From NCBI GenBank assembly GCA_021792635.1, contig JAJYUH010000001.1:10515-74514 (forward strand): 64,000 bases of DNA, written 5' to 3'. This DNA comes from Natronospirales bacterium. GTDB taxonomy: Bacteria > Pseudomonadota > Gammaproteobacteria > Natronospirales > REEB76. Made by a program: the position numbers and the translations under genes. Below are positions 6,328 through 64,000 of the stretch, piece by piece. The number at the start of each line of letters is the position of its first letter. Position 1 is the first letter of the stretch. The notes beneath the pieces were generated by a model, which saw only the letters and a list, made by a program, of their open reading frames with translations, did not search any database and was not told the origin of the DNA.

Positions 6328-6420
6328 AATCTGCAGCCTTTGGTAGTGCAACGATTCTTGCGCGAGCTGTTTCAGCGGGTATCCGCTCACCGCTTGGGTA
6401 GCAGGCAGTTGCCGCCTGCC

Positions 6421-7780: not shown

Positions 7781-7818
7781 TCGGGCTTCATCTCAATTGA
7801 GAGACGCCCCGCAACTTG

Positions 7819-8337
7819 TCATGGCAGCTTGTGTTCCGTACCTTTCGCCATCACCGTCCAGCGAACCTTGTCCGTTGAAAATTCCTGCCGGTATTCGATG
7901 CTGTCCGGTTTGCTGAACATATTCACCGTGCGGAAATAAACCGTCTTTCCGTGGTTCGTATATTCGTTGGGATAGGTCCAGCGGTTGCCTTTGATGATCA
8001 GTGTGCCGGCGAAGACCCGGCCGCTTCCGGCGGGAATGGCATAGCTGTGGTAGAGATCGTGTTTCGCGTCGTAAATAAATACGATCAGGGCCCTGGATGC
8101 GCCGTTTACGAATTGATCGCAGGCGTAGAAACCGGCGCTGCGCCAACAGTCGTTGCGCAGCGTCGCGTTTTCCCTGCCTGCTTTGCTGTAGGGAGTGGCA
8201 AAATGCTGCGTCGTGATTTTCCAGGTGCCGGCGTACACCGCAATCTTGTCGAGCCCCGCTGCGACAGGGGCGGCACCGGCCATGGCTATGGCAAGCGCGA
8301 GACAGGCGCATACGGCTATTGCGTAAATCCTGTTCAT
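7819..8337 (-). CDS. Hypothetical exported protein
   Basis: GGAG RBS before MNRIYAIAVCACLALAIAMAGAA (signal peptide-like); beta-rich mature part. Confidence 0.7.
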   Translation of the reverse strand: MNRIYAIAVCACLALAIAMAGAAPVAAGLDKIAVYAGTWKITTQHFATPYSKAGRENATLRNDCWRSAGFYACDQFVNGASRALIVFIYDAKHDLYHSYAIPAGSGRVFAGTLIIKGNRWTYPNEYTNHGKTVYFRTVNMFSKPDSIEYRQEFSTDKVRWTVMAKGTEHKLP

Positions 8338-8533
8338 GGGAATTGCTCCTGGGAAATGTCCGCTAAGGCATGAAACAAGGTTGCTGCAGAGATGTCCTCG
8401 CCCCACAGCCATGTCATGGCGGTCAGCCATTCAGGGAAGGCCATCTTCCGGGGTCTTCTGCGCGCAGGTATTTCAGTCCCGCACGCATATCCTATGATGA
8501 TGCACTTGGATTCCTGAACAATAAATCTCCCCC

Positions 8534-50328: not shown

Positions 50329-50461
50329 GACGGCTACCTCGAGTGCGATCCCACGGGTTATCCGCTTTGGAAGCGGATGCCCTAAACTATGCCTGTGCCG
50401 GGCCGCCTTGAGTCCGTTATCAGGACAGCCGTGCTCGCTCAACGGATCCCTAGGAGCGATT

Positions 50462-50639
50462 GCTGTAATTAAAGCATCTATTACTTCAGATCAACGTGCG
50501 CTTGCGGAGAATGCGATCAACGGTGCGATGAACAGCGCGGGAAAGCCGCCCGGATGTACCGCCTGGCAAGGTATTGGATGGCAGAGCGGCACGCGATCAG
50601 GCGTTCGGCCGGACACAGGACGGCCGGGGCGCGGCGGGA
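50462..50639. repeat. ~175-bp imperfect direct repeat, copy A (putative LytTR-regulated promoter)
   Basis: Shares a perfect 22-mer (GCTTGCGGAGAATGCGATCAAC) and several shorter blocks with 53509-53680. Confidence 0.8.
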
Positions 50640-50675
50640 CGGGCCCGCCGCGTTCACCGGAAAGCCGGCGATGTC

Positions 50676-51218
50676 CTAACGTTTGTGTTGCGACTCCCAG
50701 CGCCTCAGTGCGGCAAGAGTGTTGGCCACGTGCCGGTCAGGGTTGAGGTTGGTATAGGTATAAATAATGGTGCGGTCGGGGACAATCACATAGGAGGTGC
50801 GGTTGGCATATTGGGTGTTCATGGGCAGGACCGCGTCATAGGCCTTCATGATTTTCTGATTCGTGTCGGCGGCCACCGGGAACTTGCTGCGGCACTCGCT
50901 TACCGAGAATTTCTTCAAGGTGGCGATGTTGTCGTGGGACACGCCTATGACCGTAGCGCCCAAGGCATGGTACTTGTCCATGGCCTCAGCAAAATCATGC
51001 GCCTCGATGGTACAGCCCTTGGTGAACGCTGCCGGATAGAAGTACAGCACTACCGGGCCTTTCCTGAGCGCCTCGGCCAGTGAGAAGCGGTACACCTTGC
51101 CGCCCAGAGACGCTTCGGCGGTGAACAGCGGCGCTTTGGCGCCGACAACCAGGCTGGCAAAGGCGGGCAGCGCGCAGGTCGCACAGATCAATGTCACAAC
51201 AAGCAAAAACCGTTTCAT
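50676..51218 (-). CDS. Exported peroxiredoxin (BCP/PrxQ-like)
   Basis: YFYPAAFTKGCTIEA (PxxxTxxC) motif and a signal peptide. Confidence 0.92.
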   Translation of the reverse strand: MKRFLLVVTLICATCALPAFASLVVGAKAPLFTAEASLGGKVYRFSLAEALRKGPVVLYFYPAAFTKGCTIEAHDFAEAMDKYHALGATVIGVSHDNIATLKKFSVSECRSKFPVAADTNQKIMKAYDAVLPMNTQYANRTSYVIVPDRTIIYTYTNLNPDRHVANTLAALRRWESQHKR

Positions 51219-51329
51219 GATGAATCTCCTCGATTTGGATAGCCACACAATGTGAAACGTCGTAAATGCGGCAGGATTGCCGCGTTCGCCTCGAACGGAT
51301 GAATAACGGCCGCAATCGTCCCGGGTTGG

Positions 51330-51905
51330 TCATTTTCCCGCCACTGGCTTGAGTGTCACGGAAAACAGGATTTCCACCCGGTTGCCCACCCACTCGGTGT
51401 CGGCCCATTGACCGAGTCCAATATGGTAATCAAGGCGTTGCAAACTCCACTGGCCTGAAAGTCGCGCGTCGCCGCCGCCAGCAGGCGTGAGCCTGATCGG
51501 CACGCTGATTTCGCGGGTCACGTCGCGCAGCGTCAGTTTGCCGGTTACCTGATAACGCCCCGGCCCCAGGGGTTTGACCGATTCGCTGTCGAACATTGCC
51601 TGCGGCCAGCGTGCGCTGTTGAAAAAATCCGGGCCGCGCAGGGCTTTATCCAGCTCGGGTAATTGCGTGTCCACCGAGGCGGTGCGCACGCTCACGCGGA
51701 AGCGGCTGCCGGTGGCGTGGCCGGTATCAATGCACACCCGACCGGCATAATCACTGAAAGTACCGTGTACTGGCGCCCCCGCCTGCGTGCCGGTGAACAC
51801 GATCTTGCCCGCCTGCGGCACCAGTACCCAGCACTCTGCCAGCACGTGCGGCGCACCTGCCGCCCAAAGCAAGGCCCCTGCAATTATCCGTGCCACACGG
51901 TTCAC
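51330..51905 (-). CDS. YceI family protein
   Basis: SVDTQ..LDKALRGPDFF..WPQAMF..GKLTLRDVTR. The GTG start overlaps the cytochrome b561 stop. Confidence 0.9.
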   Translation of the reverse strand: MNRVARIIAGALLWAAGAPHVLAECWVLVPQAGKIVFTGTQAGAPVHGTFSDYAGRVCIDTGHATGSRFRVSVRTASVDTQLPELDKALRGPDFFNSARWPQAMFDSESVKPLGPGRYQVTGKLTLRDVTREISVPIRLTPAGGGDARLSGQWSLQRLDYHIGLGQWADTEWVGNRVEILFSVTLKPVAGK

Positions 51906-52495
51906 GGCGGACGCCCGCTGCGCCGGCCGCGGCGCGTGAATGGCAGCATGCGCGTCAGCACATTGTCCTTGAGGATGAAGTGATGCCAGAATGCCGCGCC
52001 GATGTGAATGACAACCACCGTGAGCAGCAGCCAGGCCATGGTCTGGTGAGTCAACAGCATCCAATGCGCCAGCCGCCGGTCCGGTGTCACCAAATTCGGC
52101 AGGGAAAACAGTCCGAACCAGCTCACCGTCAGGCTGGAAGCGGAGGACAGCAGCCATCCGACAATCGGCATGGCCAGCAGCAACGCGTATAGCAGGCCGT
52201 GGGACAGACGTGCCGCCGTCCGCAGCGGCGCCTGCGATGGCTGCGGCGGAGGTGACGAGTACATCCGCCACGCCAACCGCAGGATGACCAGGGCGAAGAG
52301 GGTCAGCCCGAGGGATTTGTGGCGGGCCAACAGGATCAGCCGTTCCAGGCTGAGCGGCAGACTGGCCGCTTTCACACCGAACACGAACTGCACGGTCACC
52401 AGCGCTGCAATCAGCCAGTGCAGCGTCTGTGCCACAATCCCGTAGCGTTCGGGTGTGTTCCTGAGCGGAATAGCATGCCCGGTCGAACGGTCCAT
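51902..52495 (-). CDS. Cytochrome b561 (YceJ-like)
   Basis: RYGIVAQTLHW, HKSLG, HGLLY and HIGAAFWHH heme-ligand motifs. Confidence 0.92.
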   Translation of the reverse strand: MDRSTGHAIPLRNTPERYGIVAQTLHWLIAALVTVQFVFGVKAASLPLSLERLILLARHKSLGLTLFALVILRLAWRMYSSPPPQPSQAPLRTAARLSHGLLYALLLAMPIVGWLLSSASSLTVSWFGLFSLPNLVTPDRRLAHWMLLTHQTMAWLLLTVVVIHIGAAFWHHFILKDNVLTRMLPFTRRGRRSGRPP

Positions 52496-52579
52496 GGGAG
52501 TCAGCTCTTCCGCCATTGAGCCGCATACTGCATGCACCTGAAACCCCGCTGCCCGCTGCTACTTCTGGAGATTAATAAC

Positions 52580-53311
52580 ATGAAGCTACCAAAAATTATG
52601 GCTCTGTGCGAAAGCGTGCTCCGCCAGATAACGCTTGGGGCATTGCTCGCGGGTCTGGCGGGCTGCGCAGGTGTGGCGGCCCCGCCACGCAGCAGTGTTC
52701 CGGCCCTGCCTGCGCTTGCGCCCCTCGTAACGACGGGCGCCACCCACTATGTCATCCTCTCCGATCTGTCGGACGTGCGCTTTCTGGTGTATCGCAGAGG
52801 GCCGCTGGCGGCCTTCGGCCACAACCATGTGATACGCGCCGGCAGCGTCCGGGGTGATATCTACCTCAACCATAATTTCGAATTATCCGGTTTTGCCCTG
52901 ACCCTGCCGGTAGCCGGTTTCCGCGTGGATGAGCCGGCGGACCGGGCGGTGGAAGGTGCTGCATTTGCCACGCAACCTCCGGCCGCGGCGATTGCCGGAA
53001 CCGTAAAACACATGCTCGGACCGGCAGTGCTCGACGCGGCGCGTTACCCGGACATCCGCGTGCGCTCGGTAGGGCTCGTTGGACCCGAGTGGGGGCCTGA
53101 GGTCACAATACGCATCGAGTTGCGTGGTACGCACCGTGAGCTGACCGTGCCCATAGCACTCAACAAATGCGGCGAACGCTTGACTGCCACCGGCACGTTT
53201 CAATTCCGTCAAGCCGATTTTGGCATCAAGCCGTTCAGCATCCTGGGCGGCGGTTTGCGGGTGGCCGATACGGTTACAGTCCGTTTCCATATCATCGCCC
53301 AACGCAGCTGA
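52580..53311 (+). CDS. YceI-like lipoprotein
   Basis: GGAG RBS, lipobox LAGC, GHNHVI and QADFGIKPFS..GG.L.VAD motifs. Confidence 0.85.
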   Translation: MKLPKIMALCESVLRQITLGALLAGLAGCAGVAAPPRSSVPALPALAPLVTTGATHYVILSDLSDVRFLVYRRGPLAAFGHNHVIRAGSVRGDIYLNHNFELSGFALTLPVAGFRVDEPADRAVEGAAFATQPPAAAIAGTVKHMLGPAVLDAARYPDIRVRSVGLVGPEWGPEVTIRIELRGTHRELTVPIALNKCGERLTATGTFQFRQADFGIKPFSILGGGLRVADTVTVRFHIIAQRS

Positions 53312-53508
53312 CCAGCCCCGGCCACCCGTGAGCATCTGGCGGCGGTCTCCACCCTGATCCGCGCCAGAAACTTTGACCGCTCCGGGCTTGATGGAGTTCA
53401 CCACCGGCGGCACGCGTAGAAATATGGGGATGCCGGACTCAAGCGTGGTTCAGATCCATTTACCCACACCAGCCGCAGCCATCCTCGCGGCCCGCGCAGG
53501 CAGCGACC

Positions 53509-53680
53509 GCTGTAATTGAACCATCTGTATTGCAGACAAGCGCGTGCTTGCGGAGAATGCGATCAACTGCGCGATGAACAGAGCAGAAAAATCGTCCGGA
53601 TGTGTCGCTGGGTAAGGTATTGAATAGCCGGGTGGCACGGGACCCGGTGCTCAGGCATACGCGGGAAGCGGACGGCGGGA
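53509..53680. repeat. ~175-bp imperfect direct repeat, copy B
   Basis: Homologous to 50462-50639; abuts the stop codon of the LytTR gene. Confidence 0.8.
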
Positions 53681-53681
53681 G

Positions 53682-54479
53682 CTAGCCGGGTTCGGTGACG
53701 TCAGCGAGCAGCCGGCGCACCGCGCTGCGATAGGTTATGCCGGAGGCAAAGCGCTCGCCGGTGCGCAACAGGAATTCATAGTCACCGCGCTGTCTGGGCT
53801 TCATTTCCTTCACATAGTCCAGATTGAGAATCACCGAGCGGTTGATGCGCACAAATGTCCAGCCCTCCAGCCGCTGCGCCATGTGACGAACCCGTTCGCG
53901 GATCATCGCGCGCTGCCCACTGGCGGTGTAGATGTGCAGATAATCGCCCTCCGACTCCATGTAGGTGATGTCCTCCAGATTGAGGAATTTGAGCCGGCTG
54001 CCGTCCTTGACGGTGATTCGTCCGCTGGCACGGGGTGCAAGAGAGGGTATGGGCGCGGGTGGCGTGAAAGGCATAGCCTGGTGGAGGCTACCGGACGCAG
54101 TGGTCACAGGAGCATTGTGCGCGAGCCGGGTTCTAATCTTGTCGAGCGCCTGTCGGAAACGCTCTTTGTCGAAAGGTTTTAAAAGATAGTCCACCGCATC
54201 CACCGCAAAAGCTTCCAGCGCGTGCTCGCCATACGCCGTGGTGAAGATGATGTACGGCGGTTGATCTGCCTGCAGCAAGCGGCTGAGCTGGAGCCCGGAT
54301 AATCCCGGCATTTTGATGTCCAGGAAGACCAGGTCCGGGGACAGTTGTTTCACCTTGGCAAGCGCATCCATGCCGTCACCGCTTTCTCCGGCGAGCAGCA
54401 AATCCTGCTCGTGCCTCATCAGGTCCCGTATGCGCTTGCGGGCGAGCGGTTCATCATCAGCTATGAGTACCTTGATCAT
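53682..54479 (-). CDS. LytTR-family response regulator
   Basis: DDEPLAR, FLDIKMP and AVDYLLKP receiver motifs; C-terminal LytTR domain (FVRINRSVILN). Confidence 0.95.
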   Translation of the reverse strand: MIKVLIADDEPLARKRIRDLMRHEQDLLLAGESGDGMDALAKVKQLSPDLVFLDIKMPGLSGLQLSRLLQADQPPYIIFTTAYGEHALEAFAVDAVDYLLKPFDKERFRQALDKIRTRLAHNAPVTTASGSLHQAMPFTPPAPIPSLAPRASGRITVKDGSRLKFLNLEDITYMESEGDYLHIYTASGQRAMIRERVRHMAQRLEGWTFVRINRSVILNLDYVKEMKPRQRGDYEFLLRTGERFASGITYRSAVRRLLADVTEPG

Positions 54480-54594
54480 TTCAGTTGCCTAAGATGCACG
54501 CACAGCGCCAGGACTATAGGCACGACCGTCACCCGAGCCCCGCTCAGTATAGTCAGACGGCGGCAGTTCGCGTCTGCGGGGCCCGCATCAGGTG

Positions 54595-54645
54595 TTGACT
54601 GTGCCCCAGATTTTGCTATAGTTAATTAGCAAGATATTACTTGCT
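54595..54645 (+). promoter_or_regulatory. Sigma70 promoter followed by a palindromic operator
   Basis: TTGACT-N16-TATAGT, then AGCAAG-N6-CTTGCT (54628-54645), then a GGAG RBS. Confidence 0.65.
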
Positions 54646-54665
54646 TTAATATCGGGAGATCAAGC

Positions 54666-55022
54666 ATGCTGCTTATTATTGCTGCAATTCTGTTCGCCTT
54701 GGGGGCTCTTGGGGGCTTGGTCATGGCCGTAAAGAGCTTCACAGGCGCCGTAATCCCGGTACCCCTCGCGGCCCTGCATGGCCTGCTGGGGGCCACCGGG
54801 CTGGTGCTGTTGATCGTCGCCGCGCTTCTGGGAGTGGGGGGCAATACCGGGAGGATCGCCCTCGCCGTGCTCCTGGTGGCCGCGTTGGGCGGGTTTTATC
54901 TGCTCAGCTTCCATGTCCGCAAGCAGCGGCATCCGCGGGCGGTGATTGTGATTCATGCACTGGTGGCGGTCATCGGCTTCCTCACGCTGTTGACCGCCAT
55001 CTATCAAACGGTCTTGGCTTGA
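54666..55022 (+). CDS. Small 4-TM membrane protein with an internal repeat and two His
   Basis: Two halves: LGALGG..ALHGLLGATG and LVAALGG..VIHALVAVIG. Confidence 0.8.
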   Translation: MLLIIAAILFALGALGGLVMAVKSFTGAVIPVPLAALHGLLGATGLVLLIVAALLGVGGNTGRIALAVLLVAALGGFYLLSFHVRKQRHPRAVIVIHALVAVIGFLTLLTAIYQTVLA

Positions 55023-55047
55023 GTGGAGTGGCCATGGGTATCGCCGC

Positions 55048-55503
55048 ATGAAGGGCTTGCGTATCGGCGGGCATCCGCTGCATCCGGCGCTGGTACATTT
55101 CCCGATTGCCGCCTGGACGGCGGTGCCGCTGCTGGACGTGTTGTATCTCACGCTGCGGAATCCGTTCTGGTGGCAATGCGCCTTCTGGCTGCTTGTGGTC
55201 GGTACGGGCATGGCGCTACTCACCATGGGTGCGGGTCTGTTTGATCTGCTGGCGCTACCCGTCACGCACCCGGCACAAGGTACCGCACAACGACACCTGC
55301 TGCTTATGGGCAGCGCCTGGTGTGTGTTCATCGGCGATTTGCTGCTGCACGCTCCGGGGGTGGCTCCATCGGTCCCACGCATCGTCTCGGGCTTGACACT
55401 GTCACTGGCCGGACTGGCGCTGACGCTTGCGGGAGCTTACGCCGGGGGCAAGCTGGTGTACGATTTTGGCGTGGGACAACGTGATACTCATGCTGGCAGA
55501 TAA
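55048..55503 (+). CDS. DUF2231 family membrane protein
   Basis: GHPLHPALVHFPIA start and GGKLVYDFGVG end. Confidence 0.88.
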   Translation: MKGLRIGGHPLHPALVHFPIAAWTAVPLLDVLYLTLRNPFWWQCAFWLLVVGTGMALLTMGAGLFDLLALPVTHPAQGTAQRHLLLMGSAWCVFIGDLLLHAPGVAPSVPRIVSGLTLSLAGLALTLAGAYAGGKLVYDFGVGQRDTHAGR

Positions 55504-56230
55504 AACATCTCTTCCCGCGGGCAGCATCGGGGCGCTGCCCGACACCCGCCGTGCGATTCTGCATTTGCTCAAGCAGAACGGCGCCCTGACCGCGGGCGAA
55601 GTGGCGAAACGTCTTGACGGTACGCGCGAGGCCGCGCGTCAGCAATTGCAACTGCTGGAAGAGGAGGGTTGGGTGGCACGCGCCTCCCGGACTGGAATCC
55701 CCCGCACCGGCCGGCCGGCGGTGGCCTTTTCTCTGACTCCGGCTGCCGATCATCTTTTTCCGAAGCATTACGACACGCTGTCTCTGATCCTGGTGGACAC
55801 GGTAGCCGAGCAATTCGGCGAAGAAGCGCTGGTTAAGCTGCTTACCGCGCTTACCGACCAGCAAGTCGCTCGCTGGGAGCCCAAGCTCGCCGGCAAGCCG
55901 CTTGCGGAACGCATCCGCTTATTGAAGGGGATCTACTTCGATGGTGATCCGTTTACTTCCGTGAAGCGGGATCGGTGCGGTTACATGCTGGTGGAACGCA
56001 ATTGCCCGTACCTTAGCCTGGCGATGCGCCGCCCGCGGTTGTGCAGCGTTACGGTTTCCACCCTGATACGACTGTTGGGCGTGCGTGTGGTGCGCGAAAA
56101 ACGTTTCCAGGACGGGGCCGGCCGTTGCGTGTTCCGGGTGCTGGCTGACCAGCCCGTTGATCCCGGCAGTTTCCGCTTTGCACTCGAGGAAACCAGGGAG
56201 CAACGACCGGTTGCCGCAACGATCCGGTAA
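55490..56230 (+). CDS. SufR-like winged-helix regulator with a C-terminal Cys motif
   Basis: TRRAILHLLK..AARQQLQLLEEEG..GRPA wHTH; ERNCPY...LC...GRCVF. Confidence 0.85.
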   Translation: MLADKTSLPAGSIGALPDTRRAILHLLKQNGALTAGEVAKRLDGTREAARQQLQLLEEEGWVARASRTGIPRTGRPAVAFSLTPAADHLFPKHYDTLSLILVDTVAEQFGEEALVKLLTALTDQQVARWEPKLAGKPLAERIRLLKGIYFDGDPFTSVKRDRCGYMLVERNCPYLSLAMRRPRLCSVTVSTLIRLLGVRVVREKRFQDGAGRCVFRVLADQPVDPGSFRFALEETREQRPVAATIR

Positions 56231-56285
56231 ACAATGTAGCGACGGATTGTACGCGGCGCAAATCAGGGCCGCGACCACATCGGCA

Positions 56286-57650
56286 TCAGTCCGGATTTCC
56301 GGCCTGGCGGACGCGATCCGCGGAACGCCGCCGGTAGAACAGCCAGATGAAGTACAGCGGCACACCCAGCAGCGTGATGAGAATGCTGGCGCCGGTGGAG
56401 ACCGGCTGGTGGTAAAGGGAATTGCCTACCACTGCGAAGGTGGCCAGCACAAACAGCGCGGGGATGAACGGATAACCCCATGCGCGGTAAGGCCGGGGGA
56501 AATCCGGCCGGCGTTTTCTCAGGATGAACAAGCCGATCACCGCCAATGCCAGGAACGGCCAGATACCCAGTACATAGGCCTCCGCCAACTGCATGAAATC
56601 CCGCAACAGCACATAGATGACGGCGATCACCACGATGAAGGCGATGGCGACATAGGGCGTTTCGTAACGCGGGTGCACTCGGCCGACGGTGCGGAAAAAC
56701 AGGCCATCCTCCGCCATGGCGTAGAACACCCGCGGACTCGAGAGGATGCTGCCGTTCAGGGTGCCGAACACCGAGAGCATCACCAGCGCGGCCACCAGCG
56801 AGGCGCCCGCGTGCCCCAGCACCACCGTGGCGGAATCCGCGGCCACGGATGTGGACGAGGCCAGCGCCGGCAGGGGTAACGCACGCAGATAGGCGGCGTT
56901 GATCAGGACATATACCACCAGCACCACGAGAGTGCCGCCGATGAGGGCCAGGGGCAGATTGCGCTGCGGGTTGCGTACCTCACCGGAGAGGGCAGTGAGA
57001 TTCTCCCAGCCGTCATAAGCCCAAAGGGCCGCCACCAGACCGATGCCGATACCCGGCCAGTTGGCTGCGCCCAGGGATTCCGTGTGTAACGGGTTGTGAG
57101 CACCGCCCGGCGCCAGGATAAAAATCGCCACGCTCAATCCCATGATGGCCAGCACCTTGGCGCCGGTGGAAAGGTTCTGGATCACGGCGCCGAGTTTCAC
57201 CGAGCGATAATTAGCGGCGCTTACCAGCACGATCAGAGCGGCAGCGATGAGATGGATCACGCCGACCGACAGGGGCACAAAAAAGCCCAGGTACTCGGCG
57301 AAGATCAGGCTTTGGGCCGCCCAGGAAATGGGCGTGGTCAGCAACCACATCCAGCCGAACAGGAAGGCCAACGGTTTGCCGTAGGCTTCCCGCAAGTAAA
57401 CATAGGGCCCGCCTGCTTCGGGGTACATGGCCGCCAGCTCCGCCACCGACAGGGCGCCGAACAGGGCCACCAGCCCACCCAGCACCCACACCAGGGCGAT
57501 ACCGGTGATGTTGCCGGTGACCGCGGCGATGGGCGAAGGCACGCGGAAAATGCCGCTGCCGATGATGATGCCCACCACCACCGCCATGCCGGTCCACAGG
57601 CCGAGTTTGCGAGGCAAGCTGCGTGGCGGAACTGAAGGGCTGTCCTGCAT
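56286..57650 (-). CDS. APC-family amino acid permease
   Basis: GIIIGSGIF, AGGPYVYLREAYG and LWAYDGWE motifs. Confidence 0.93.
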   Translation of the reverse strand: MQDSPSVPPRSLPRKLGLWTGMAVVVGIIIGSGIFRVPSPIAAVTGNITGIALVWVLGGLVALFGALSVAELAAMYPEAGGPYVYLREAYGKPLAFLFGWMWLLTTPISWAAQSLIFAEYLGFFVPLSVGVIHLIAAALIVLVSAANYRSVKLGAVIQNLSTGAKVLAIMGLSVAIFILAPGGAHNPLHTESLGAANWPGIGIGLVAALWAYDGWENLTALSGEVRNPQRNLPLALIGGTLVVLVVYVLINAAYLRALPLPALASSTSVAADSATVVLGHAGASLVAALVMLSVFGTLNGSILSSPRVFYAMAEDGLFFRTVGRVHPRYETPYVAIAFIVVIAVIYVLLRDFMQLAEAYVLGIWPFLALAVIGLFILRKRRPDFPRPYRAWGYPFIPALFVLATFAVVGNSLYHQPVSTGASILITLLGVPLYFIWLFYRRRSADRVRQAGNPD

Positions 57651-57778
57651 GGGTGTGCAGCCTGCCACAGACAGGTTTTGACGTCACCTATCCGATGTGG
57701 CTGTCGTGAGCCGGGCAAACCGGTATATTGAATCATTCGCCGGGCGTGCCGGTATTCCGAATGCTTTGGGAGAATCGT

Positions 57779-58177
57779 ATGGGTCTGCAGATCACTGGCA
57801 TCATGGTCGCCGCCGTGCTCATGTTCATCCTCGGCGGTATCTGGTATTCACCCGGGCTGTTCGCACATGCCTGGTCGCGGGAAACCGGCATCACCGAACA
57901 CAAGCCCACTCCCAAGAGCATGCTGCGTTTCTCCGCCGTGCTGCTGGTACTTTTGCTGCTGAGCGCGGCGATCCTAGCCTGCATCCTGGCGAATTGGCTT
58001 CCGGGCCACAATTGGCGCCACGGTTTGGCGGTGGGATTTCTGGGCGGCGTGCTGGCGACAGCGGTTGCGGGCATGAATACGCTGTTCGAGCGCAAGAGCG
58101 TGAAACTTTTTCTCATCAACGCCGGTTACTACCTCATCGGTTTCTGCATCATGGGCCTGATTCTCCCGCTGTTTTGA
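57779..58177 (+). CDS. DUF1761 family membrane protein
   Basis: LGGIWYSP.LF..W and FERKS.KLFLINAGY motifs. Confidence 0.88.
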   Translation: MGLQITGIMVAAVLMFILGGIWYSPGLFAHAWSRETGITEHKPTPKSMLRFSAVLLVLLLLSAAILACILANWLPGHNWRHGLAVGFLGGVLATAVAGMNTLFERKSVKLFLINAGYYLIGFCIMGLILPLF

Positions 58178-58333
58178 GGTATGCATGCCGCTGGATGCAT
58201 ATGACACGCCGTATTTTTACGCGACTCCCTGGCCGTATCCGGGCGCTACATTATTGCCGGTCCTGCAACCACCGGCGGCGTGCTGCGTACTGCTGAACTC
58301 GTCCCTGAGCCTGATGCCGGTGAGGAATTGAGC

Positions 58334-58774
58334 GTGATTCTCAAGGGCCAGTGTCATTGCGGCAATATTCAAATCACCTTTGAAACGGCGCAGCTGCCCG
58401 GACAGTTGCCGCTGCGCGCCTGCCAGTGCGCCTTTTGCCGTGCACACGGGGCGGTGACCGCCGCCGATCCCTCGGGAAAGCTCGCTGTCCATGTCCTGGA
58501 TCCGCGGATGCTGACGCGTTACCGTTTCGGTTCCGGCATCACGGACTTTCTGATCTGTACCCGCTGCGGCGTGTATGTGGCGGCGACCCTGGAAGTAGAT
58601 GGTGTGCTTTACGGGACACTGAACGTCAACGTGCTTGCGGAACGCGCGCGACTGACGGCCGCGCCCCGGCCGATGGACTATGGCGCTGAAACTGCGGTCA
58701 CGCGTACCCGCCGCCGCCGGCAGCACTGGACGCCCGTGGTGTGGCAGCGATCACGTACACCAGAAGCTTTCTGA
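58334..58774 (+). CDS. GFA (Zn-binding, aldehyde-activating) family protein
   Basis: GQCHCG, CQCAFC and CTRCG motifs. Confidence 0.88.
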   Translation: MILKGQCHCGNIQITFETAQLPGQLPLRACQCAFCRAHGAVTAADPSGKLAVHVLDPRMLTRYRFGSGITDFLICTRCGVYVAATLEVDGVLYGTLNVNVLAERARLTAAPRPMDYGAETAVTRTRRRRQHWTPVVWQRSRTPEAF

Positions 58775-58779
58775 ATGAA

Positions 58780-59721
58780 TCAGAACAGAAATCCCGCTCC
58801 CACGCCAAAGTAGTGTGACCAGCCGCCCAAGTTACCCGAGATCCGTTGGCCGATCTCCGCATCCACCTCAAAGCGAGGGGTGATGAGGTATTGGATGCCG
58901 CCATCCGCATCATAACCCGCACCCTGGCCCGGGCTCGTGTGATTCTGTCCATAGGCCTCCAGATAGAACTGGAAGTTCTGGGTGGTTTCCCAAGTAAGCA
59001 CCAGGTCCGGATTCACGCTCCAGTAGTACGCGCCTCCTTGAACGTCAGCGGCTTGGGCCAAATGTGTCACCCCGAGCATCAGGGTCAAGGCGACCGAGGA
59101 AGTGAGGCTGTAGCCGACGATGCCATTGACCGCATAACCCGTGGCGGCCGAACCATAGGTGGGGCTGCCGGAGGGGAGTGTAAAGAGAGTCTCACCCGCC
59201 CAGATCCAGCGGGCGTTGTAGCCGAATTCGTGCTTGATCCCCACCACCGAAGCACCTCCCCCGGTGAGGGTCTGACTGCCTCCGCCGGGCATGGGTGTCA
59301 CCTGACGGCTGATGTTGGGAGGAAGAAAGACGAATTCATTCTGGTCAGGCAGGCCGAACCGCAGTTCCCCTTGCGGGTATCCCAATGCATGTCCGCTCTG
59401 GCCCAAGAGCGTGTACCGGGCCCATCCGGTCTCCAGGACCGCATAACCGGGTTTCACCGCGCAGGCACTGTCTCCCACCGTGGGGCGATCCAGCAGAGCG
59501 AGGAGCGCACTGGGCCCCGCGCACGGATCGGAGATGCCCGACAGCGAGCCCTTGGCCCAGACGGGGCCCATCATGCCCATACCCAGGACCAGAAACAGCA
59601 GCGGCGATAACGCAGGCCGATTACCCCGACCAGCGCTGTTCAACGGCATGGGGTTGTCGTCCGGTGCGTGAATGGCAACCGGCAGCGGATACAACGGAAA
59701 GGCAGCAGGGATTTTTTTCAT
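58780..59721 (-). CDS. Outer-membrane beta-barrel transporter (MetA-pathway/transporter-like)
   Basis: DRPTVGDSAC N-terminal motif, amphipathic strands and terminal GAGFLF. ATG 59721 overlaps the cytochrome b stop; ATG 59649 is an alternative start. Confidence 0.8.
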   Translation of the reverse strand: MKKIPAAFPLYPLPVAIHAPDDNPMPLNSAGRGNRPALSPLLFLVLGMGMMGPVWAKGSLSGISDPCAGPSALLALLDRPTVGDSACAVKPGYAVLETGWARYTLLGQSGHALGYPQGELRFGLPDQNEFVFLPPNISRQVTPMPGGGSQTLTGGGASVVGIKHEFGYNARWIWAGETLFTLPSGSPTYGSAATGYAVNGIVGYSLTSSVALTLMLGVTHLAQAADVQGGAYYWSVNPDLVLTWETTQNFQFYLEAYGQNHTSPGQGAGYDADGGIQYLITPRFEVDAEIGQRISGNLGGWSHYFGVGAGFLF

Positions 59722-61157
59722 TTGAACGTCACTCGGGTGGGGACCGGCTTGGGCTCATTCAGCACGGGAAAAGCTGCCGGCAATAATAGAAAAATGATGC
59801 AGTAGGTCCCCGGTATGAGCCAGCTCACCGACTTGAGTGCGGCTTCACTCGAAGTCCACGTGAGTTTATCCAGGAGACTGATGATACCCATGATTACGCC
59901 GAAGGCAATTACAAAATATTTACGCGAACGCGGCTGGGTATAGATCCAGGACAGCACGAAGAACAGAAAGTACAATTCCGCGATGCGCTGTCCGATCTCC
60001 GCCCAAAACGGACTGGCCGGTTGCATGCCGATGTAACCCAAAGCAATGAAGCTCAGGCCGAAGGCTATCGCCAGGCCGCGGTAGGCGAGACCGCGGTAAC
60101 GCAACGATTTAATAGGGTTGCGATCGATCCAAGGCAACAAAAACGGCAAGAGGATGGACAGCGCCAACAAGGTCACTCCCAAGCTTTTGTTGGGGATGGA
60201 GCGCAGAATCGCGAAGAACGGGCCGAAATACCACAGTGGGCGGATATCTGACGGCGTGTGCATCCCATTTGCCGGCACGGAGTTTGCTGGCTCCAAGAAC
60301 AAGCCGTGCAGACCGGGCGAGAAAAAGATGATGGCCGCAAAGATCGCCAGGAATACCGTCACCCCGACGATGTCCTTGATGGTGTAGTACGGATGGAACG
60401 GGATGCCGTCCAGCGGAAGGCCGTTGGCGTCCTTGTGTTCCTTGATCTCGATACCGTCCGGATTATTGGAACCCACTTCATGCAGCGCCACCAGGTGGAA
60501 CACCACCAGCCCGACCAGCACCAGCGGCACCGCCACGATATGCAGTGCGAAAAAACGGTTGAGGGTGATACCGGAAACCGCATAGTCGCCGCGCAGCCAC
60601 TGCTCCAATCCGTGACCGATACCGGGAATGACGCCGAACAGCGAAATAATCACTTGCGCACCCCAGTAGGACATCTGTCCCCAGGGCAGCAGGTAGCCGG
60701 TGAAGGCTTCGGCCATCAGCGCCACATAAATCAGCATGCCGAAGATCCACAAAAGCTCGCGCGGCTTTTTGTAGGAACCGTAGATCACGCCGCGGAACAT
60801 GTGCAGGTACACCACCACGAAGAACAGGGAGGCGCCCACCGAGTGCAGGTAGCGGATCAGCCAGCCCCAGTTCACATCGCGCATGATGTACTGCACCGAG
60901 GCAAACGCCTCCGTGGCCGAGGGCTGGTAGTTCATGGCGAGGAAGATGCCGGTGACAATCTGATTCACCAGGATCAGCAGCGCGATGGAGCCGAAGAAAT
61001 ACCAGAAGTTGAAGTTCTTGGGGGCGTAGTACTGGGCCACCTGCTCGTTCCAGAGCTTGCTCATGGGGAAGCGCGCATCAATCCAGTCAAGCAGTTTGCG
61101 TAACCATGCATCCATGGCGTCGATAAGATCACGCATTTCCGTTTCGTTCTGCTTCAT
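59718..61157 (-). CDS. petB: Cytochrome b of the bc1-complex type, stand-alone, with a C-terminal membrane extension
   Basis: YYAPKNFNFWYFFG, GWLIRYLH..GAS...YLHM.RG, LPWGQMSYWGAQVI, RFFALH and FHLVALH motifs; all four heme His present. Confidence 0.95.
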   Translation of the reverse strand: MKQNETEMRDLIDAMDAWLRKLLDWIDARFPMSKLWNEQVAQYYAPKNFNFWYFFGSIALLILVNQIVTGIFLAMNYQPSATEAFASVQYIMRDVNWGWLIRYLHSVGASLFFVVVYLHMFRGVIYGSYKKPRELLWIFGMLIYVALMAEAFTGYLLPWGQMSYWGAQVIISLFGVIPGIGHGLEQWLRGDYAVSGITLNRFFALHIVAVPLVLVGLVVFHLVALHEVGSNNPDGIEIKEHKDANGLPLDGIPFHPYYTIKDIVGVTVFLAIFAAIIFFSPGLHGLFLEPANSVPANGMHTPSDIRPLWYFGPFFAILRSIPNKSLGVTLLALSILLPFLLPWIDRNPIKSLRYRGLAYRGLAIAFGLSFIALGYIGMQPASPFWAEIGQRIAELYFLFFVLSWIYTQPRSRKYFVIAFGVIMGIISLLDKLTWTSSEAALKSVSWLIPGTYCIIFLLLPAAFPVLNEPKPVPTRVTFK

Positions 61158-61198
61158 GTAGTGCTCTTTTCATCGGTACTCGCGGCAACTTCAATCAT

Positions 61199-62398
61199 TC
61201 AGACCCATGCCGGGTGCAGCCAGTAATATCCGGCCAATCCCAGCAGGGCTCCCACGGACACGATGCTGACTTCAGGCAGCTTGGGCCATTTGAGAATCAC
61301 CGCCAGGCTGGTCATGGCGATAACGCTTGTCAGTACATCCCCGATGGCGGCGGTGGCGATCAGGATGCCGGTACCGAACAAGGCGCCCACCACGGCGGAA
61401 ATAATCCCTTGCAGAAATCCCTGCAGATAGCGATTGGCGCGGTAGCGTTTCAGCAGCGGTGCGGCCACGATCGTCAACAGCACCGAGGGGGCGAACATCC
61501 CCACCGTTGCGACCAAGCCGCCTTTGAAACCATTGAGCACATAGCCGACGAACGTCGCGGTAATCACCACGGGGCCGGGGGTGATCATGCCGATGGCGAC
61601 GGCGTCAATGAATTGACGGTCTGTCAGCCAGTGATATTGATCCACGACGTAGACCTTGAGAAATGGGGCGATAACCAGGCCGCTGCCGAATACCAAAAAA
61701 CCGGTCTTGAAGAAAAACACGAATAATTTGCCGGAGGTACCGCTCAGCCAGGCACTTGGCAGAGCCAGCCAACCGGCGCCGGCTGACGACATCGTCGCGG
61801 ACGATGTGCTTGGGGGCGGAGGGCCGGGACCGGCGAATACCAGACAGCCCAGCAGGCCCGCAATCAGGAACAGGCTGATGAGCTCCTGTTTGAAGGCGAG
61901 GGTGATGACCGCCGCGACCACGGCGAACAGCCAGGCGAGCCGCCGGGTCTTCAGGGTTTTGCGGCCCAGTTGCCAGCAGGCCTTCAGGATGAGTGCGACG
62001 ATGACTGGCGCCACCCCGTAAAAGATCGCCTTGACCTCCCAGGCGCCGGTGAAGTGCACATAGAGAGCGGCGGCGGCCGTCACGATGAGGAAAGGCGCGA
62101 GAGCAAACGCCGCAGCAACCGCCAGCGCGCCGCGGATCCGGAAGCGGACGTAGCCGCAATAAACCCCCAGCTGGTAAGCCAGGGGTCCGGGACAGGCGGT
62201 CGCGAGTGCCAGACCGTCTTCATATTCGGCCTCCGTGAGCCAGCCGCGTTCCTCCACCAGATCCCCCCGCATGTGCTGGGCCAAGACCACGGGGCCGCCA
62301 AATCCCAGTGCCCCCAGTCGCAGGAAATAGCGGGACATTTGCCACAGGGTTACCCTGCCCTGGAGTCCGTCGAGGCCGGGATCAGTATGGGTAGGCAT
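61199..62398 (-). CDS. chrA: Chromate efflux transporter
   Basis: FLRLGALGFGGP and PGP motifs in both halves (TACPGP, MITPGP). Confidence 0.93.
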   Translation of the reverse strand: MPTHTDPGLDGLQGRVTLWQMSRYFLRLGALGFGGPVVLAQHMRGDLVEERGWLTEAEYEDGLALATACPGPLAYQLGVYCGYVRFRIRGALAVAAAFALAPFLIVTAAAALYVHFTGAWEVKAIFYGVAPVIVALILKACWQLGRKTLKTRRLAWLFAVVAAVITLAFKQELISLFLIAGLLGCLVFAGPGPPPPSTSSATMSSAGAGWLALPSAWLSGTSGKLFVFFFKTGFLVFGSGLVIAPFLKVYVVDQYHWLTDRQFIDAVAIGMITPGPVVITATFVGYVLNGFKGGLVATVGMFAPSVLLTIVAAPLLKRYRANRYLQGFLQGIISAVVGALFGTGILIATAAIGDVLTSVIAMTSLAVILKWPKLPEVSIVSVGALLGLAGYYWLHPAWV

Positions 62399-62438
62399 GG
62401 GCGTCTGCCTTGGGGTTCCAAGGAATTGAATTAATCGT

Positions 62439-62450
62439 TACATATATGTA
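62439..62450. promoter_or_regulatory. Palindrome in the chrA/chrB divergent intergenic region
   Basis: Perfect 12-bp TACATATATGTA, next to a CCTTGG-GGTT-CCAAGG hairpin at 62408-62423. Confidence 0.5.
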
Positions 62451-62461
62451 TCATCAGTTAC

Positions 62462-63433
62462 ATGACTGATGCAAGCACTTGGCTGACCCTGATTACCAGC
62501 CTGCCCGGCCAAAACACGGCCGCCCGCGTGCGGGTATGGCGTGCACTCAAGGCTTCCGGCGCGGCTGCGTTGCGCGATGGGGTATACCTTCTGCCCCGGA
62601 CGCTGCAGAACGAGACCGTTTTCCGAGAGCAGGTACAGGAGATTGAGGCCGCCGGGGGAACCGCCTATGTCGCCGAATACCATCCCCTGGATGGTAGGGA
62701 GCAGGGCGGGGATCTGAAGCGTTTCTTTGACCGCACGTCGGAGTATGCCGACCTTCTCCACCGGCTGGATGCCTTCAAACGCGAATTGGTCTCGGCATCG
62801 GAAGTGGAGGCACGCCGTGCCATCGCCGTGCTGCGCCGCGAGTTTGCCGCGGTGATGGAGACGGATTTTTTCCCCGGTCCTTCCCGGGCACAGGTCGAGC
62901 AGGCCTTGGCGGATGCCGAGGCCGCTCTCAATGCGCGTTTCTCACCGGACGAACCGCATGCCGCAGTGGGAGCGTTGCGCCGGCACGCGCCAACGGATTA
63001 CCAGGGCAAGACTTGGGCGACGAGGGCTCATCTCTGGATTGATCGCGTCGCGTCCGCCTGGCTGATCCGCCGTTTTATTGATCCGCAGGGACGTTTCCTC
63101 TGGCTCAAGGATGTCACCCGGCGGCCAGAGAATGTAATCGGGTTCGACTTCGATGGGGCCGAATTCAGCCACGTGGGCACGCGTGTCACCTTCGAAGTCC
63201 TGGCGTTCAGTTTCGGGCTGGAAAACGATCCGGCGATCGCGCGGCTCGGTGGCATGGCGCATTACCTGGATGTGGGGGGCGTGCCCGTCCCAGAGGCTGC
63301 GGGCTTCGCGGCCATCATGGCCGGGGCGCGGGCCCAAGCCGTAGATGACGATGAGCTACTCGCGGAGATCAGCAAGACACTGGATTACCTGTATACCGCG
63401 TACTCCGAAGACCAGCCCGCCCCTCATGCATGA
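62462..63433 (+). CDS. chrB: Chromate resistance/sensing regulator ChrB
   Basis: SLPGQNTAARVRVWRALK..GVYLLP, DFFPG, W.TR..LWIDRVASAWLIRRFID and FDFDGAEFSH motifs. Confidence 0.92.
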   Translation: MTDASTWLTLITSLPGQNTAARVRVWRALKASGAAALRDGVYLLPRTLQNETVFREQVQEIEAAGGTAYVAEYHPLDGREQGGDLKRFFDRTSEYADLLHRLDAFKRELVSASEVEARRAIAVLRREFAAVMETDFFPGPSRAQVEQALADAEAALNARFSPDEPHAAVGALRRHAPTDYQGKTWATRAHLWIDRVASAWLIRRFIDPQGRFLWLKDVTRRPENVIGFDFDGAEFSHVGTRVTFEVLAFSFGLENDPAIARLGGMAHYLDVGGVPVPEAAGFAAIMAGARAQAVDDDELLAEISKTLDYLYTAYSEDQPAPHA

Positions 63434-63579
63434 GGAGGACATCGCGGTAATGAGATCCCACCATGGGAACGAGCGGGTACCCATCGGGTTTGAGAATGGA
63501 CATGCCGCTCCGCTGCAGATGAGAGGATAAGGACGCCGGAATATTTTGCCTGACTAACTGAAACTGAGGAGATAGTGTT

Positions 63580-64000
63580 ATGTATCACAATACGCAGATC
63601 AAAAAACTCTCAATGCACATGCTGTGGGAGCATTCCAGAATATTTTTGCATCCCCGTCGCCTGATTGCCAGCGGAGTTCTTGGCGCCGCAGTCGCGGGTT
63701 TGGCATTTTCCGGTTCTTTGCCGGCCTACGCGGGAACGGTGATGACCCACGCGTCCGCCCCACGGGTGCATATCTACGTCCAGACCGTAGTATGGGCCTC
63801 AAAAAAGAATGGCGCCGTGCCGGCCTGGAAAAAGTTCGGTGATGCCTACGGTTTCGCCCCCGCCACCATTGTCGTGCGTCAGGGCGATGAAGTCACATTG
63901 ACCTTCCGGAACCTGCAGGCGGGTGCCCATGATTTACACACCTTTACCTTGCCGGCCTACGGCATCAGCCGCACGCTGCCGCGCCTGAGCACGGTGAACG
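63580..64000 (+). CDS. Exported cupredoxin-domain protein, partial (runs off the right edge; not in the ORF track)
   Basis: GAGGAG RBS; signal peptide containing PRRL..AYA; FAPATIVVRQGDEVTLTFRN...HTFT cupredoxin pattern. The Cys/His/Met ligands would lie beyond the window. Confidence 0.75.
   Translation, partial: MYHNTQIKKLSMHMLWEHSRIFLHPRRLIASGVLGAAVAGLAFSGSLPAYAGTVMTHASAPRVHIYVQTVVWASKKNGAVPAWKKFGDAYGFAPATIVVRQGDEVTLTFRNLQAGAHDLHTFTLPAYGISRTLPRLSTVN

Follow-up and report, generated by a model that had tools for sequence, protein, structure and literature searches.

The 64-kb window, the whole stretch of DNA analysed here from an uncultured gammaproteobacterium, carries a movable chromate-resistance module. 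One of its genes, designated petB′, is a copy, precise to the single gene, of the bc1 cytochrome b native to the host lineage. We propose, with a probability of about 0.4, that petB′ encodes a ChrB-controlled alternative cytochrome b that would assemble with the housekeeping Rieske and cytochrome c1 subunits.

The gene order of the module is beta-propeller, cupredoxin and chrB, followed on the opposite strand by chrA, petB′ and an outer-membrane barrel. The initial annotation had placed the barrel, the cytochrome b and chrA on the minus strand with chrB and the cupredoxin divergent, and this placement is correct for all five genes. ChrA (61199..62398, minus strand) is a 399-aa chromate efflux transporter with two CHR domains (PF02417, 264 bits; TIGR00937, 314 bits against a cut-off of 171.7), and ChrB (62462..63433, plus strand) belongs to the chromate-responsive regulator family, with ChrB_N and ChrB_C domains (PF09828, 134 bits; PF20229, 39 bits). 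The divergent control region between the two genes (62399..62461) has the 63 bp first given for it; its mean identity of 93% is above that of the flanking genes, its core is invariant across 5 loci, and it contains a perfect palindrome, TACATATATGTA, at 62439-62450 and a promoter-like TTGAAT-17-TATCAT for chrB. A gap between chrA and the cytochrome b was also annotated, at 42 bp; it exists but measures 41 nt (61158..61198, minus strand). This spacer lacks a terminator and any stable fold (its MFE of −6.4 kcal/mol is weaker than that of the shuffles), which together with the conserved control region provides operon signals supporting a joint chrA-petB′-barrel unit.

The linkage was first noted in this one sequence, and it holds beyond one genome. 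The chrB|chrA-cytochrome b-barrel block recurs in at least three differing genomic contexts, with about 90% of its nucleotides identical, indicating that the linkage is not due to chance and that the conserved module with its "orphan" cytochrome b is real. The chrA-petB′-barrel linkage is confined to one genus-level clade, within which the module has been kept through at least three relocations and petB′ accompanies chrB|chrA in all intact copies. Some loci have lost petB′: L092 retains the last 93 codons only and L093 only fragments.

Chromate-resistance determinants of the chrBA(C)(F) type are known from Cupriavidus metallidurans and from TnOtChr of Ochrobactrum tritici. Like these, the module has a ChrA efflux pump and a two-domain ChrB regulator, and past the window it continues with a ChrC-like Fe/Mn superoxide dismutase and a stand-alone ChrB_C protein. 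Unlike these, where chrB lies upstream of chrA and is co-directional, chrB here is divergent, and the module adds the cupredoxin and the YVTN beta-propeller, along with the outer-membrane barrel and the bc1 cytochrome b. No published paper connecting chr operons with a bc1 cytochrome b turned up in a full-text literature search.

The petB′ gene (59718..61157, minus strand) encodes a full-length bc1-type cytochrome b of 479 aa (PF00033, 223 bits; PF00032, 108 bits) with a 590-bit match to the Pseudomonas aeruginosa cytochrome b (8SMR). All four haem-ligand histidines (H105, H119, H206 and H221) are invariant, and the Qi residues H226/K261/D262 are retained together with Glu289, PLWY and the Qo pocket residues. 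Thus, like the cytochrome b of a canonical petABC (fbcFBC) operon, PetB′ has every haem, Qi and Qo residue, with the exception of the Y302 tyrosine, but unlike it the gene has no adjoining petA or petC. The open reading frame is intact in 16 distinct sequences, all of which share fixed substitutions at otherwise invariant sites, and dN/dS is 0.13-0.17 in both halves, similar to canonical genes. We conclude from the sequence comparisons that petB′ is intact and under purifying selection.

The nearest relatives outside the clade are 75-81% identical and all lie within petA-petB-petC-sspA-sspB operons; PetB′ is 81% identical overall to one such canonical protein (P0004). In a phylogeny the chr-linked genes form their own clade next to canonical genes of the same lineage. 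DNA homology to the canonical operon runs from the petB ribosome site or start to ~15 nt inside petC, and this end point bears on the barrel gene. The barrel ORF as called (58780-59721, minus strand; PF13557, 25 bits, cut-off 22) begins at an ATGA overlap with petB′, suggestive of translational coupling. The overlap is present in the window, but it is homologous to the canonical petB-petC junction, with the alignment continuing through TTCAAATGAAAAAA and then ending, so that it is a relic of that junction. With the overlap begins a leader (59650..59721, minus strand), upstream of the barrel gene, that is open and in frame here. A 1-nt deletion in two related loci (L003 and L089) throws the overlap ATG out of frame; because of this frame shift and the gene call in L089, the working start is probably the internal ATG at 59649 (MPLNS..., with a normal signal peptide). 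The probable true gene (58780..59649, minus strand) encodes a COG4313/Phenol_MetA_deg outer-membrane beta-barrel with a signal peptide and a C-terminal Phe. Its AlphaFold model (pLDDT 87.5) gave Foldseek matches to FapF, NanC and the COG4313 channel 4RL8 at TM 0.62-0.66.

PetB′ is a mosaic of two parts. The N-module (60285..61157, minus strand; codons 1-291) comprises helices A-E, both haems and the Qi site, and the C-module (59721..60284, minus strand; codons 292-479) comprises the ef loop, PLWY, helices F-H and a two-helix extension. The boundary of the mosaic matches the division of cytochrome b into two bundles. Over residues 30-289 the identity to canonical petB (cluster 4) is 93-96%, whereas residues 292-479 are 63-69% identical to any canonical petB and 86-100% identical inside the clade; the second helical bundle is 31-37% different from every canonical sequence. 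The dS between petB′ and canonical genes is 0.29 for the N-module and 1.5 for the C-module. C-module values against canonical genes are saturated (1.5-3.3), indicating that the copy is old. The trees of the two parts conflict: in the N-part tree petB′ nests with canonical clusters 4/5/10, and in the C-part tree it branches at the base.

Within the N-module, a 294-nt tract (60793..61086, minus strand) matches the canonical petB of GCA_027440675.1 (L088) at every position (100%) and carries canonical-type bases at diagnostic sites. In a shuffle test 0 of 20,000 shuffles reached 294 nt (maximum 123), and orthologues share identical runs of at most 86 nt. The petB′ of locus L001 has a 142-nt tract identical to canonical locus L083, and one contig (L155) fuses chrB|chrA-petB′(5′) to canonical petB(3′)-petC-sspAB. 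The 294-nt identity indicates that gene conversion is ongoing, and the N-module, with helices A-E, haems bL and bH and Qi, is repeatedly overwritten by conversion from the resident canonical petB. Artefacts of metagenome assembly could partly account for the 294-nt tract and contig L155, but even then one sample would have to contain both loci.

These tracts also bear on whether petB′ is the organism's sole petB, displaced from petA and petC. As first annotated, no Rieske or cytochrome c1 gene adjoins the cytochrome b, and tblastn found neither petA nor petC across the whole 64-kb window, nor is a dedicated copy of either present in the module; this would fit a displaced gene. We consider this very improbable, since the chr-linked clade is separate and stands beside canonical genes of the same lineage, the conversion tracts are identical to canonical petB, the hybrid contig needs both loci, and the homology to the canonical operon extends into the first bases of petC. 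A separate canonical petABC is thus strongly implied for the lineage by the conversion tracts and the hybrid contig; co-residence of petABC and petB′ is inferred from sequence comparison.

The contrast in divergence between the two parts could be partly passive, since recombination requires high identity, and selection is not necessary to produce it. It would thus suit a non-adaptive account in which petB′ is a hitch-hiking duplicate caught between chrA and the barrel that persists through conversion repair and the youth of the module, and the decayed versions in L092 and L093 and the restriction of the linkage to one genus-level clade are consistent with such an origin. We regard it as distinctly unlikely: the low dN/dS extends to the C-module, which is beyond the reach of conversion, the saturated C-module dS makes the copy old, all 16 of the 16 distinct sequences keep an intact frame and identical fixed substitutions, and the module was retained across its relocations.

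The ef loop and second bundle F-H form an old, clade-specific version of the part that builds the Qo pocket, the Rieske docking site and the gate surface; in cytochrome b the Qo pocket is formed by the second bundle and periplasmic loops (PMC7908018). Clade-fixed changes are F315 (60213-60215, minus strand), Tyr to Phe at Rhodobacter Y302, and M299 (60261-60263, minus strand), Leu to Met at Rhodobacter L286 of the ef loop, along with P338 and A358. The Y302 position is Tyr in 131/131 canonical sequences and Phe in 16/16 clade sequences. Y302 hydrogen-bonds the Rieske head backbone and L286 belongs to the ef-loop barrier (PMC7908018). Substitutions at Y302/Y279 in Rhodobacter and yeast lower the rate and raise ROS, so the Tyr to Phe change is not obviously protective. 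Subunit IV of b6f naturally has Phe here (PDB 1Q90, 6RQF; PEWYFYPVF, compared with PLWYFGPFF in PetB′), and b6f partners a Rieske protein. The mosaic boundary is also b6f-like: residue 292 is the helix E/ef-loop junction, about one helix downstream of the natural b6/subunit IV split. Unlike b6f, PetB′ is a single polypeptide and is otherwise of gammaproteobacterial bc1 type (TIGR01156, 34 bits, cut-off 127).

Qo-inhibitor resistance classically maps to the equivalent tyrosine (Plasmodium falciparum Y268, yeast Y279; PMC7908018), and the PetB′ changes are restricted to the Qo-forming module. PetB′ might accordingly be a resistant-target copy against some Qo poison that is not chromate, for instance a naturally occurring inhibitor resembling quinol, with its position in the chr island accidental. 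This is improbable, slightly more so than the hitch-hiking duplicate: 41 nt without a terminator separate petB′ from chrA upstream of it, petB′ accompanies chrB|chrA in every intact copy, and the module contains no inhibitor-related or biosynthetic genes.

The initial annotation favoured a stand-alone quinol-to-periplasm path coupled to efflux, with the cupredoxin as a possible acceptor. The exported, blue-copper type cupredoxin is represented by its 5′ part (63580..64000, plus strand; 140 codons, ended by the window edge). Its full-length orthologue in L001 (174 aa, 93% identical; PF13473, 49 bits) has the type-1 Cu ligands H...HCDYHRPWM, and the protein resembles nitrosocyanin and the NosZ CuA domain. 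On this reading PetB′, lacking Rieske and c1, would be a membrane haem wire passing quinol electrons to the cupredoxin and propeller or to chromate, as a quinol reductase of chromate or another oxidant. The lack of a Rieske or c1 gene in the module, the constant presence of the type-1 copper cupredoxin and YVTN beta-propeller, and a weak match of PetB′ to NCBIfam NF040969 are in its favour. So is the clustering of changes at the Rieske-head docking site, which a change of partner would also predict. There is a precedent of a sort in the Geobacter sulfurreducens ext cluster, where the porin-like ExtI and the b-type cytochrome ExtP serve selenite and tellurite reduction (PMC5877670). Both clusters are oxyanion-related, and each has an outer-membrane barrel alongside a b-type membrane cytochrome; however, multihaem c-type cytochromes are central to ext and no module protein has any c-type haem motif, the ExtP model reaches 175 where its cut-off is 290, and the barrel is of another family.

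Bifurcated quinol oxidation at Qo needs a 2Fe-2S head, and PetB′ keeps Glu289, PLWY and the pocket residues. Because these hallmarks of a Rieske-dependent Qo site are all retained, a bc1 replacement subunit is more economical than the stand-alone path. Phe at the Y302 position is normal in the Rieske-dependent b6f, and the cupredoxin has a cleavable Sec-type signal (its RR pair is unconserved), unlike a Rieske-like membrane-anchored partner. A sister module (L150) has propeller-cupredoxin-chrB|chrA with neither cytochrome b nor barrel, indicating that the role of the copper proteins is independent of petB′ and weakening the case for the cupredoxin as acceptor. We therefore consider the haem wire unlikely.

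For the bc1 replacement subunit we envisage the following. Upon chromate, ChrB would leave the conserved palindromic operator and chrA-petB′-barrel would be expressed as a single transcript. ChrA would pump chromate to the periplasm, and the barrel could be an outer-membrane route for the anion or its product. PetB′ would take the place of PetB in newly made bc1, with the Rieske protein and cytochrome c1 supplied by the housekeeping genes. The resulting isoform would have altered docking of the Rieske head at the quinol-oxidation site, which might sustain quinol oxidation, or reduce electron leak to chromate, as oxidant builds up in the periplasm. Several points speak against such an isoform: the C-module is one third different from the canonical one and would still have to fit the membrane anchors of the housekeeping Rieske protein and c1, the co-acquired barrel has no necessary role in this scheme, and petB′ is lost in some loci.

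In the cbb3 oxidases of P. aeruginosa, orphan CcoN4 isosubunits hybridise with full-operon subunits under cyanide control (PMC5697931, PMC10790758). By analogy with ccoN4Q4, petB′ may be viewed as a catalytic-subunit paralogue that is partnerless, away from the full operon and linked to a stress regulator. The enzyme is different, hybridisation of PetB′ is only inferred, and, unlike the cbb3 isosubunits, gene conversion keeps petB′ half-identical to the main copy. Organisms with alternative Rieske proteins or whole Rieske/cytochrome b complexes are mentioned by PMC4122944 with reference to ten Brink et al. 2013, and Mesorhizobium loti has multiple complexes or Rieske proteins of this kind (PMC6256036). 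These likewise provide alternative subunits or complexes for differing redox conditions, but in known cases the duplication concerns the Rieske protein or the entire operon, whereas here petB is duplicated alone; we found no described case in the literature of a lone cytochrome b paralogue sharing Rieske and c1. The combination of a conserved haem half and a diverged quinol-oxidising half suggests a stress-specific form of a core respiratory subunit.

Open reading frame (ORF) listing together with profile searches confirmed the gene map of the initial annotation. On the minus strand lie a beta-barrel ORF (58780-59721; PF13557), a cytochrome b gene, here called petB' (59718-61157; 479 aa; PF00033 and PF00032), and chrA (61199-62398), the product of which scores 314 bits against the curated TIGR00937 cut-off of 171.7 and belongs to the CHR family. 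Adjoining chrA on the plus strand is chrB (62462-63433), which encodes both the N- and C-terminal ChrB domains (PF20229 and PF09828), followed by a cupredoxin ORF that starts at 63580 in the ORF listing and runs off the window end. The 63-bp gap between chrA and chrB was as described; the chrA-cytochrome b spacer is 41 nt rather than 42, and it is unstructured. Compared with known chr determinants, the window has the ChrA and ChrB features but lacks the classical co-directional chrBA order with chrB upstream, since the two genes are divergently transcribed. No terminator-like sites were found between chrA, cytochrome b and the barrel or elsewhere across 58400-63700, and promoter-like matches in that interval occurred at chance level only. 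A search of the plasmid collection gave no match, nor did an Rfam search of the whole window.

The divergent 63-bp region is 93% conserved across five related loci, which is above the conservation of the genes themselves, and it contains a promoter-like site for chrB. Within the chrA-chrB intergenic region at 62439-62450 is a perfect 12-bp palindrome, TACATATATGTA, that is invariant in the five loci, a candidate operator for ChrB. An imperfect repeat (CCTTGG..CCAAGG) is also present in this region, at about 62409-62424.

The petB' product carries the Cytochrome_B N- and C-terminal domains in one polypeptide (PF00033, 223 bits; PF00032, 108 bits) and matches 8SMR chain I with 590 bits. Canonical PetB is encoded with petA (Rieske) and petC (cytochrome c1), whereas petB' is flanked by chrA and the barrel, and no Rieske or cytochrome c1 homologue was found anywhere in the 64-kb window. 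Among 5.8 billion proteins its closest relatives fall into two sets. The first comprises about 16 sequences that are 86-100% identical and form one clade, and each member assignable to a contig has chrA on one side and the barrel on the other; the second, 75-81% identical, is the sister group, and all members examined lie in ordinary petA-petB-petC-sspA-sspB operons. All related sequences are metagenome-derived, and the organism is an uncultured gammaproteobacterium. DNA homology between the petB' locus and the canonical operons extends from the petB ribosome-binding site or start codon to about 15 nt into petC, at ...TTCAAATGAAAAAA. From these alignments we conclude that petB' is a copy of the lineage's own petB. 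The ATGA overlap between petB' and the barrel reported in the initial annotation is present in the window, and because the homology runs into petC, this overlap is a remnant of the old petB-petC junction. In several genomes of one group of canonical petB sequences (cluster 4), a 116-aa fragment of an IS605-type OrfB (TnpB) lies between degP and petA, directly upstream of petABC (L083, 4604-4954; L086, 1604-1954; L154, 104-454), and it might be related to the copying of petB.

The copy is not uniformly related to its source. Residues 30-289 of PetB' are 93-96% identical to canonical cluster 4, an identity equal to or higher than that among the chr-linked copies themselves. Residues 290-479 are 63-69% identical to any canonical sequence versus 86-100% within the clade, and between the chr-linked copy in the related locus L001 and the canonical gene in L083, synonymous divergence rises from 0.29 in the first part to 1.5 in the second. 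The two parts give conflicting trees: by its first part petB' nests among canonical genes of the same genus-level group, and by its second it takes a basal position in the family-level group as a whole. A search of 1.84 billion representatives with the C-terminal module (codons 292-479; ef loop and helices F-H) returned fragments only, none closer than the family already seen. The mosaic boundary falls between gene nucleotides 552 and 873, at about codon 291, and matches the two-bundle architecture of cytochrome b, in which helices A-E hold both haems and helices F-H with the periplasmic loops build the Qo pocket, the site of quinol oxidation (PMC7908018). By this comparison, the divergent part of petB' is the Qo half. 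Toward the end of that half (window 59721-59970, residues ~412-466), some 65 inserted residues, which include two additional hydrophobic segments, precede the conserved C-terminal PVPxRVT motif. The insertion is common to canonical and chr-linked members of this gammaproteobacterial family, is lacking from Pseudomonas cytochrome b, and is the stretch most divergent between the paralogues (55% nucleotide identity).

Within the conserved half, gene positions 72-365 (window 60793-61086) match the canonical petB of GCA_027440675.1 at all 294 nt (100% identity), with bases of the canonical type at the diagnostic sites. The longest identical run shared by orthologues is at most 86 bases, and when mismatch positions were shuffled, 0 of 20,000 trials reached 294 (maximum 123). 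In L001 a separate run of 142 nt is identical to another canonical gene. Bubble-merging during assembly could in principle have produced the 294-nt tract; the N/C mosaic itself is reproduced in the independent assemblies L001, L089 and L090. The pattern indicates that petB' is a mosaic kept half-identical to canonical petB by gene conversion.

Look-ups for one assembly containing petB' together with canonical petABC found none directly; one of them gave L155 (GCA_027440995.1, DAIARD010000034.1; 1-4437), in which chrB|chrA is followed by a hybrid cytochrome b and then petC-sspA-sspB. The first ~400 nt of this cytochrome b are chr-type (L001-like) and the remainder is canonical (L083-like). L155 may be a true recombinant, for example by inversion between inverted paralogues, or it may reflect the assembler crossing a shared segment, and in either case both loci must have been present together. 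The separate, complete petABC that the initial annotation proposed to confirm is thus strongly implied for the same cells by the conversion tracts and L155. Beside this stands the less likely account that petB' is the sole petB, displaced from its operon.

The haem bL and bH ligands (H105, H119, H206 and H221, in helices B and D) are invariant in the alignment, and the Qi residues, Glu289 and PLWY (P307-L-W-Y310) are all intact. PetB' fits the beta/gamma-proteobacterial Qo pattern of a hydrophobic second residue together with Glu at yeast position 253 (E289), and PLWY is the normal form of the motif in these groups (PMC4122944). PLWY in place of PEWY was rejected as a special feature, as canonical relatives carry PLWY or PVWY too. 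When we asked which positions at least 89% conserved in 131 canonical sequences are replaced in the clade, four were found: L299M, L338P, L358A and Y315F. L299 corresponds to Rhodobacter L286, part of the ef-loop "barrier" to Rieske-head movement, and Y315 to Rhodobacter Y302 and yeast Y279, a contact with the Rieske head. The latter position is Tyr in 131 of 131 canonical sequences versus Phe in 16 of 16 clade members, so that PetB' lacks the canonical Qo tyrosine at the Rieske head; apart from this residue and its operon partners, it keeps the other sequence features checked for canonical PetB. Adjacent ef-loop positions differ too (NSVPANGMH versus NFEPANPLK), and the other pocket residues (I305, Y310, F314, L318, R319 and K324) are unaltered. 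The hydroxyl of Y302/Y279 bonds the Rieske-head backbone, and its mutation results in lower turnover and more ROS, or in atovaquone resistance (PMC7908018). That PetB' serves as a resistant target for some other Qo poison is among the less likely explanations. Phe is natural at this position in b6f subunit IV (PEWYFYPVF in 1Q90 and 6RQF), and Y315F can therefore be reconciled with a Rieske-dependent site. In both halves, pairwise dN/dS within the clade is 0.13-0.17, comparable with 0.06-0.16 among canonical genes, values that point to petB' being an intact copy under selection; a neutral hitch-hiker is correspondingly a less likely reading.

The chrB|chrA-petB'-barrel block (58711-63410) recurs at about 90% identity in three genomic settings, one comprising the window and L001, one shared by L003 and L089, and one in L090; the linkage pointed out in the initial annotation is therefore not unique to this genome. 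The barrel-side flank (53682-58774), which encodes a GFA-family protein, DUF1761, an amino-acid permease, a MarR/HTH regulator, DUF2231 and a LytTR response regulator, is found in L001 and not in L003, L089 or L090, placing these genes outside the module. A decayed module occurs in L092 (Ga0307372_10000002, a 350-kb contig; 7594-8870), downstream of a TonB-dependent receptor, where the last 93 codons of petB' precede an intact barrel gene; L093 has scattered petB' fragments around the barrel.

The ATG of the ATGA overlap is out of frame in L003 and L089 owing to a 1-nt deletion. The probable start of the barrel gene is an internal ATG at 59649, and translation from there yields a normal signal peptide. 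The barrel matches PF13557 with 25 bits (cut-off 22), as do many homologues, and a sequence-level PDB search gave no match. In its model (pLDDT 87.5) the fold is similar to that of small outer-membrane channels, among them the COG4313 channel 4RL8 with about 12 strands (TM 0.62-0.66); FapF and NanC score equally well. Compared with Ext-type porin/cytochrome clusters for oxyanion reduction, the ExtP model NF040969 reached 175 bits against a cut-off of 290, and no CxxCH motif, and hence no Ext-type multihaem c-type cytochrome feature, was found in any module protein. The closest barrel paralogue lies among housekeeping genes. In 55 metagenome loci with barrel homologues of at most 70% identity, neither chrA nor a cytochrome b lay beside them, and such homologues were never beside chr genes.

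An exact look-up of the window cytochrome b gave no entry. For DNA beyond the window we used L001 (GCA_021816765.1), which is collinear with 49737-64000 (91% nucleotide identity). The chrB operon of L001 goes on with a 174-aa cupredoxin bearing the type-1 copper ligands H...HCDYHRPWM, a stand-alone ChrB_C protein, a 345-aa YVTN-type beta-propeller and a ChrC-like Fe/Mn superoxide dismutase. Only the first His region of the window cupredoxin falls inside the window; the full-length L001 orthologue, 93% identical, has the features of a type-1 copper cupredoxin (PF13473, 49 bits; HCDYHRPWM) and shows the greatest similarity to the NosZ CuA domain and nitrosocyanin. The cupredoxin signal peptide (63580-63730 in the window) reads HPRRLIAS in the window and HPRHLIAS in L001 and has no RR in L089, making Tat export doubtful. 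A role as a Tat-anchored Rieske substitute was rejected, as the RR pair is not kept in orthologues and an AXA cleavage site follows. Cupredoxin and propeller are always in the module (L001, 5427-7578; L089, 6053-7647) but are more diverged; each weakly matches one of two nitrous-oxide reductase domains and is matched by NF052460 "L-NosZ".

The nearest outgroup chrA (77% identical) lies in L150 (ERZ27233556 k141_14385), where cupredoxin and propeller are kept beside chrB (4311-8206) in the order propeller-cupredoxin-chrB|chrA, cytochrome b and barrel both being absent; a further outgroup chrA lies in chrB-RND|chrA-MFS. The copper proteins thus belong to a wider type of chr module, and propeller-cupredoxin-chrB|chrA is a recurring and so far uncharacterised one, in which the two may constitute an uncharacterised periplasmic copper enzyme. 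Since L150 lacks both genes and distant barrels are never beside chr genes, petB' and the barrel are an addition specific to this clade, placed downstream of chrA. The initial annotation had proposed an electron path from quinol to the periplasm with the cupredoxin as a possible acceptor. As a stand-alone path, this idea is weakened by the cytochrome-free sister module and by the fully conserved Rieske-dependent Qo chemistry, and we regard it as unlikely. It is also rather improbable that PetB' acts as a Rieske-independent dimer, alone or with cupredoxin and propeller, that would move quinol electrons across the membrane to reduce chromate or another periplasmic oxidant; such an enzyme would represent a new type of respiratory or detoxifying complex, made from half of a bc1 subunit.

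We favor, at a probability of roughly 40%, a reading in which chromate exposure would cause the chrA operon to supply an alternative cytochrome b. PetB' would join the housekeeping Rieske protein and cytochrome c1 to form a bc1 isoform that copes better with high levels of a strong oxidant in the periplasm, and ChrA and the barrel would handle the anion itself. Consistent with such an isoform are an intact, selected, mosaic petB paralogue without dedicated partners directly behind chrA, a conserved ChrB-type control region, and changes at the Rieske docking and gate surface with the rest of the Qo site unchanged. The orphan CcoN4 isosubunits of the P. aeruginosa cbb3 oxidase provide a precedent for this logic (PMC5697931, PMC10790758). 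Organisms with more than one Rieske protein, or with more than one whole Rieske/cytochrome b complex, are already known (PMC4122944, PMC6256036). No paper reporting a bc1 cytochrome b within a chr operon was found in a full-text search, where only cytochrome bd was linked to chromate. Nor did we come across a description of a single cytochrome b paralogue that is kept half-identical to the main gene.

Cytochrome b is the catalytic core of complex III and is usually treated as single-copy and co-adapted with Rieske and cytochrome c1. A second copy maintained in nature amounts to a natural experiment, from which one could learn how different parts of cytochrome b affect Rieske docking, electron leak and oxidant tolerance: the half with the haems and the Qi site stays identical to the main copy, the Qo half has specialised independently, and the altered residues include the very tyrosine whose mutation gives drug resistance and disease in other systems. 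If PetB' is a stress isoform, "isosubunit swapping" would extend from terminal oxidases and Rieske proteins to cytochrome b, and a respiratory component would be added to chromate resistance.
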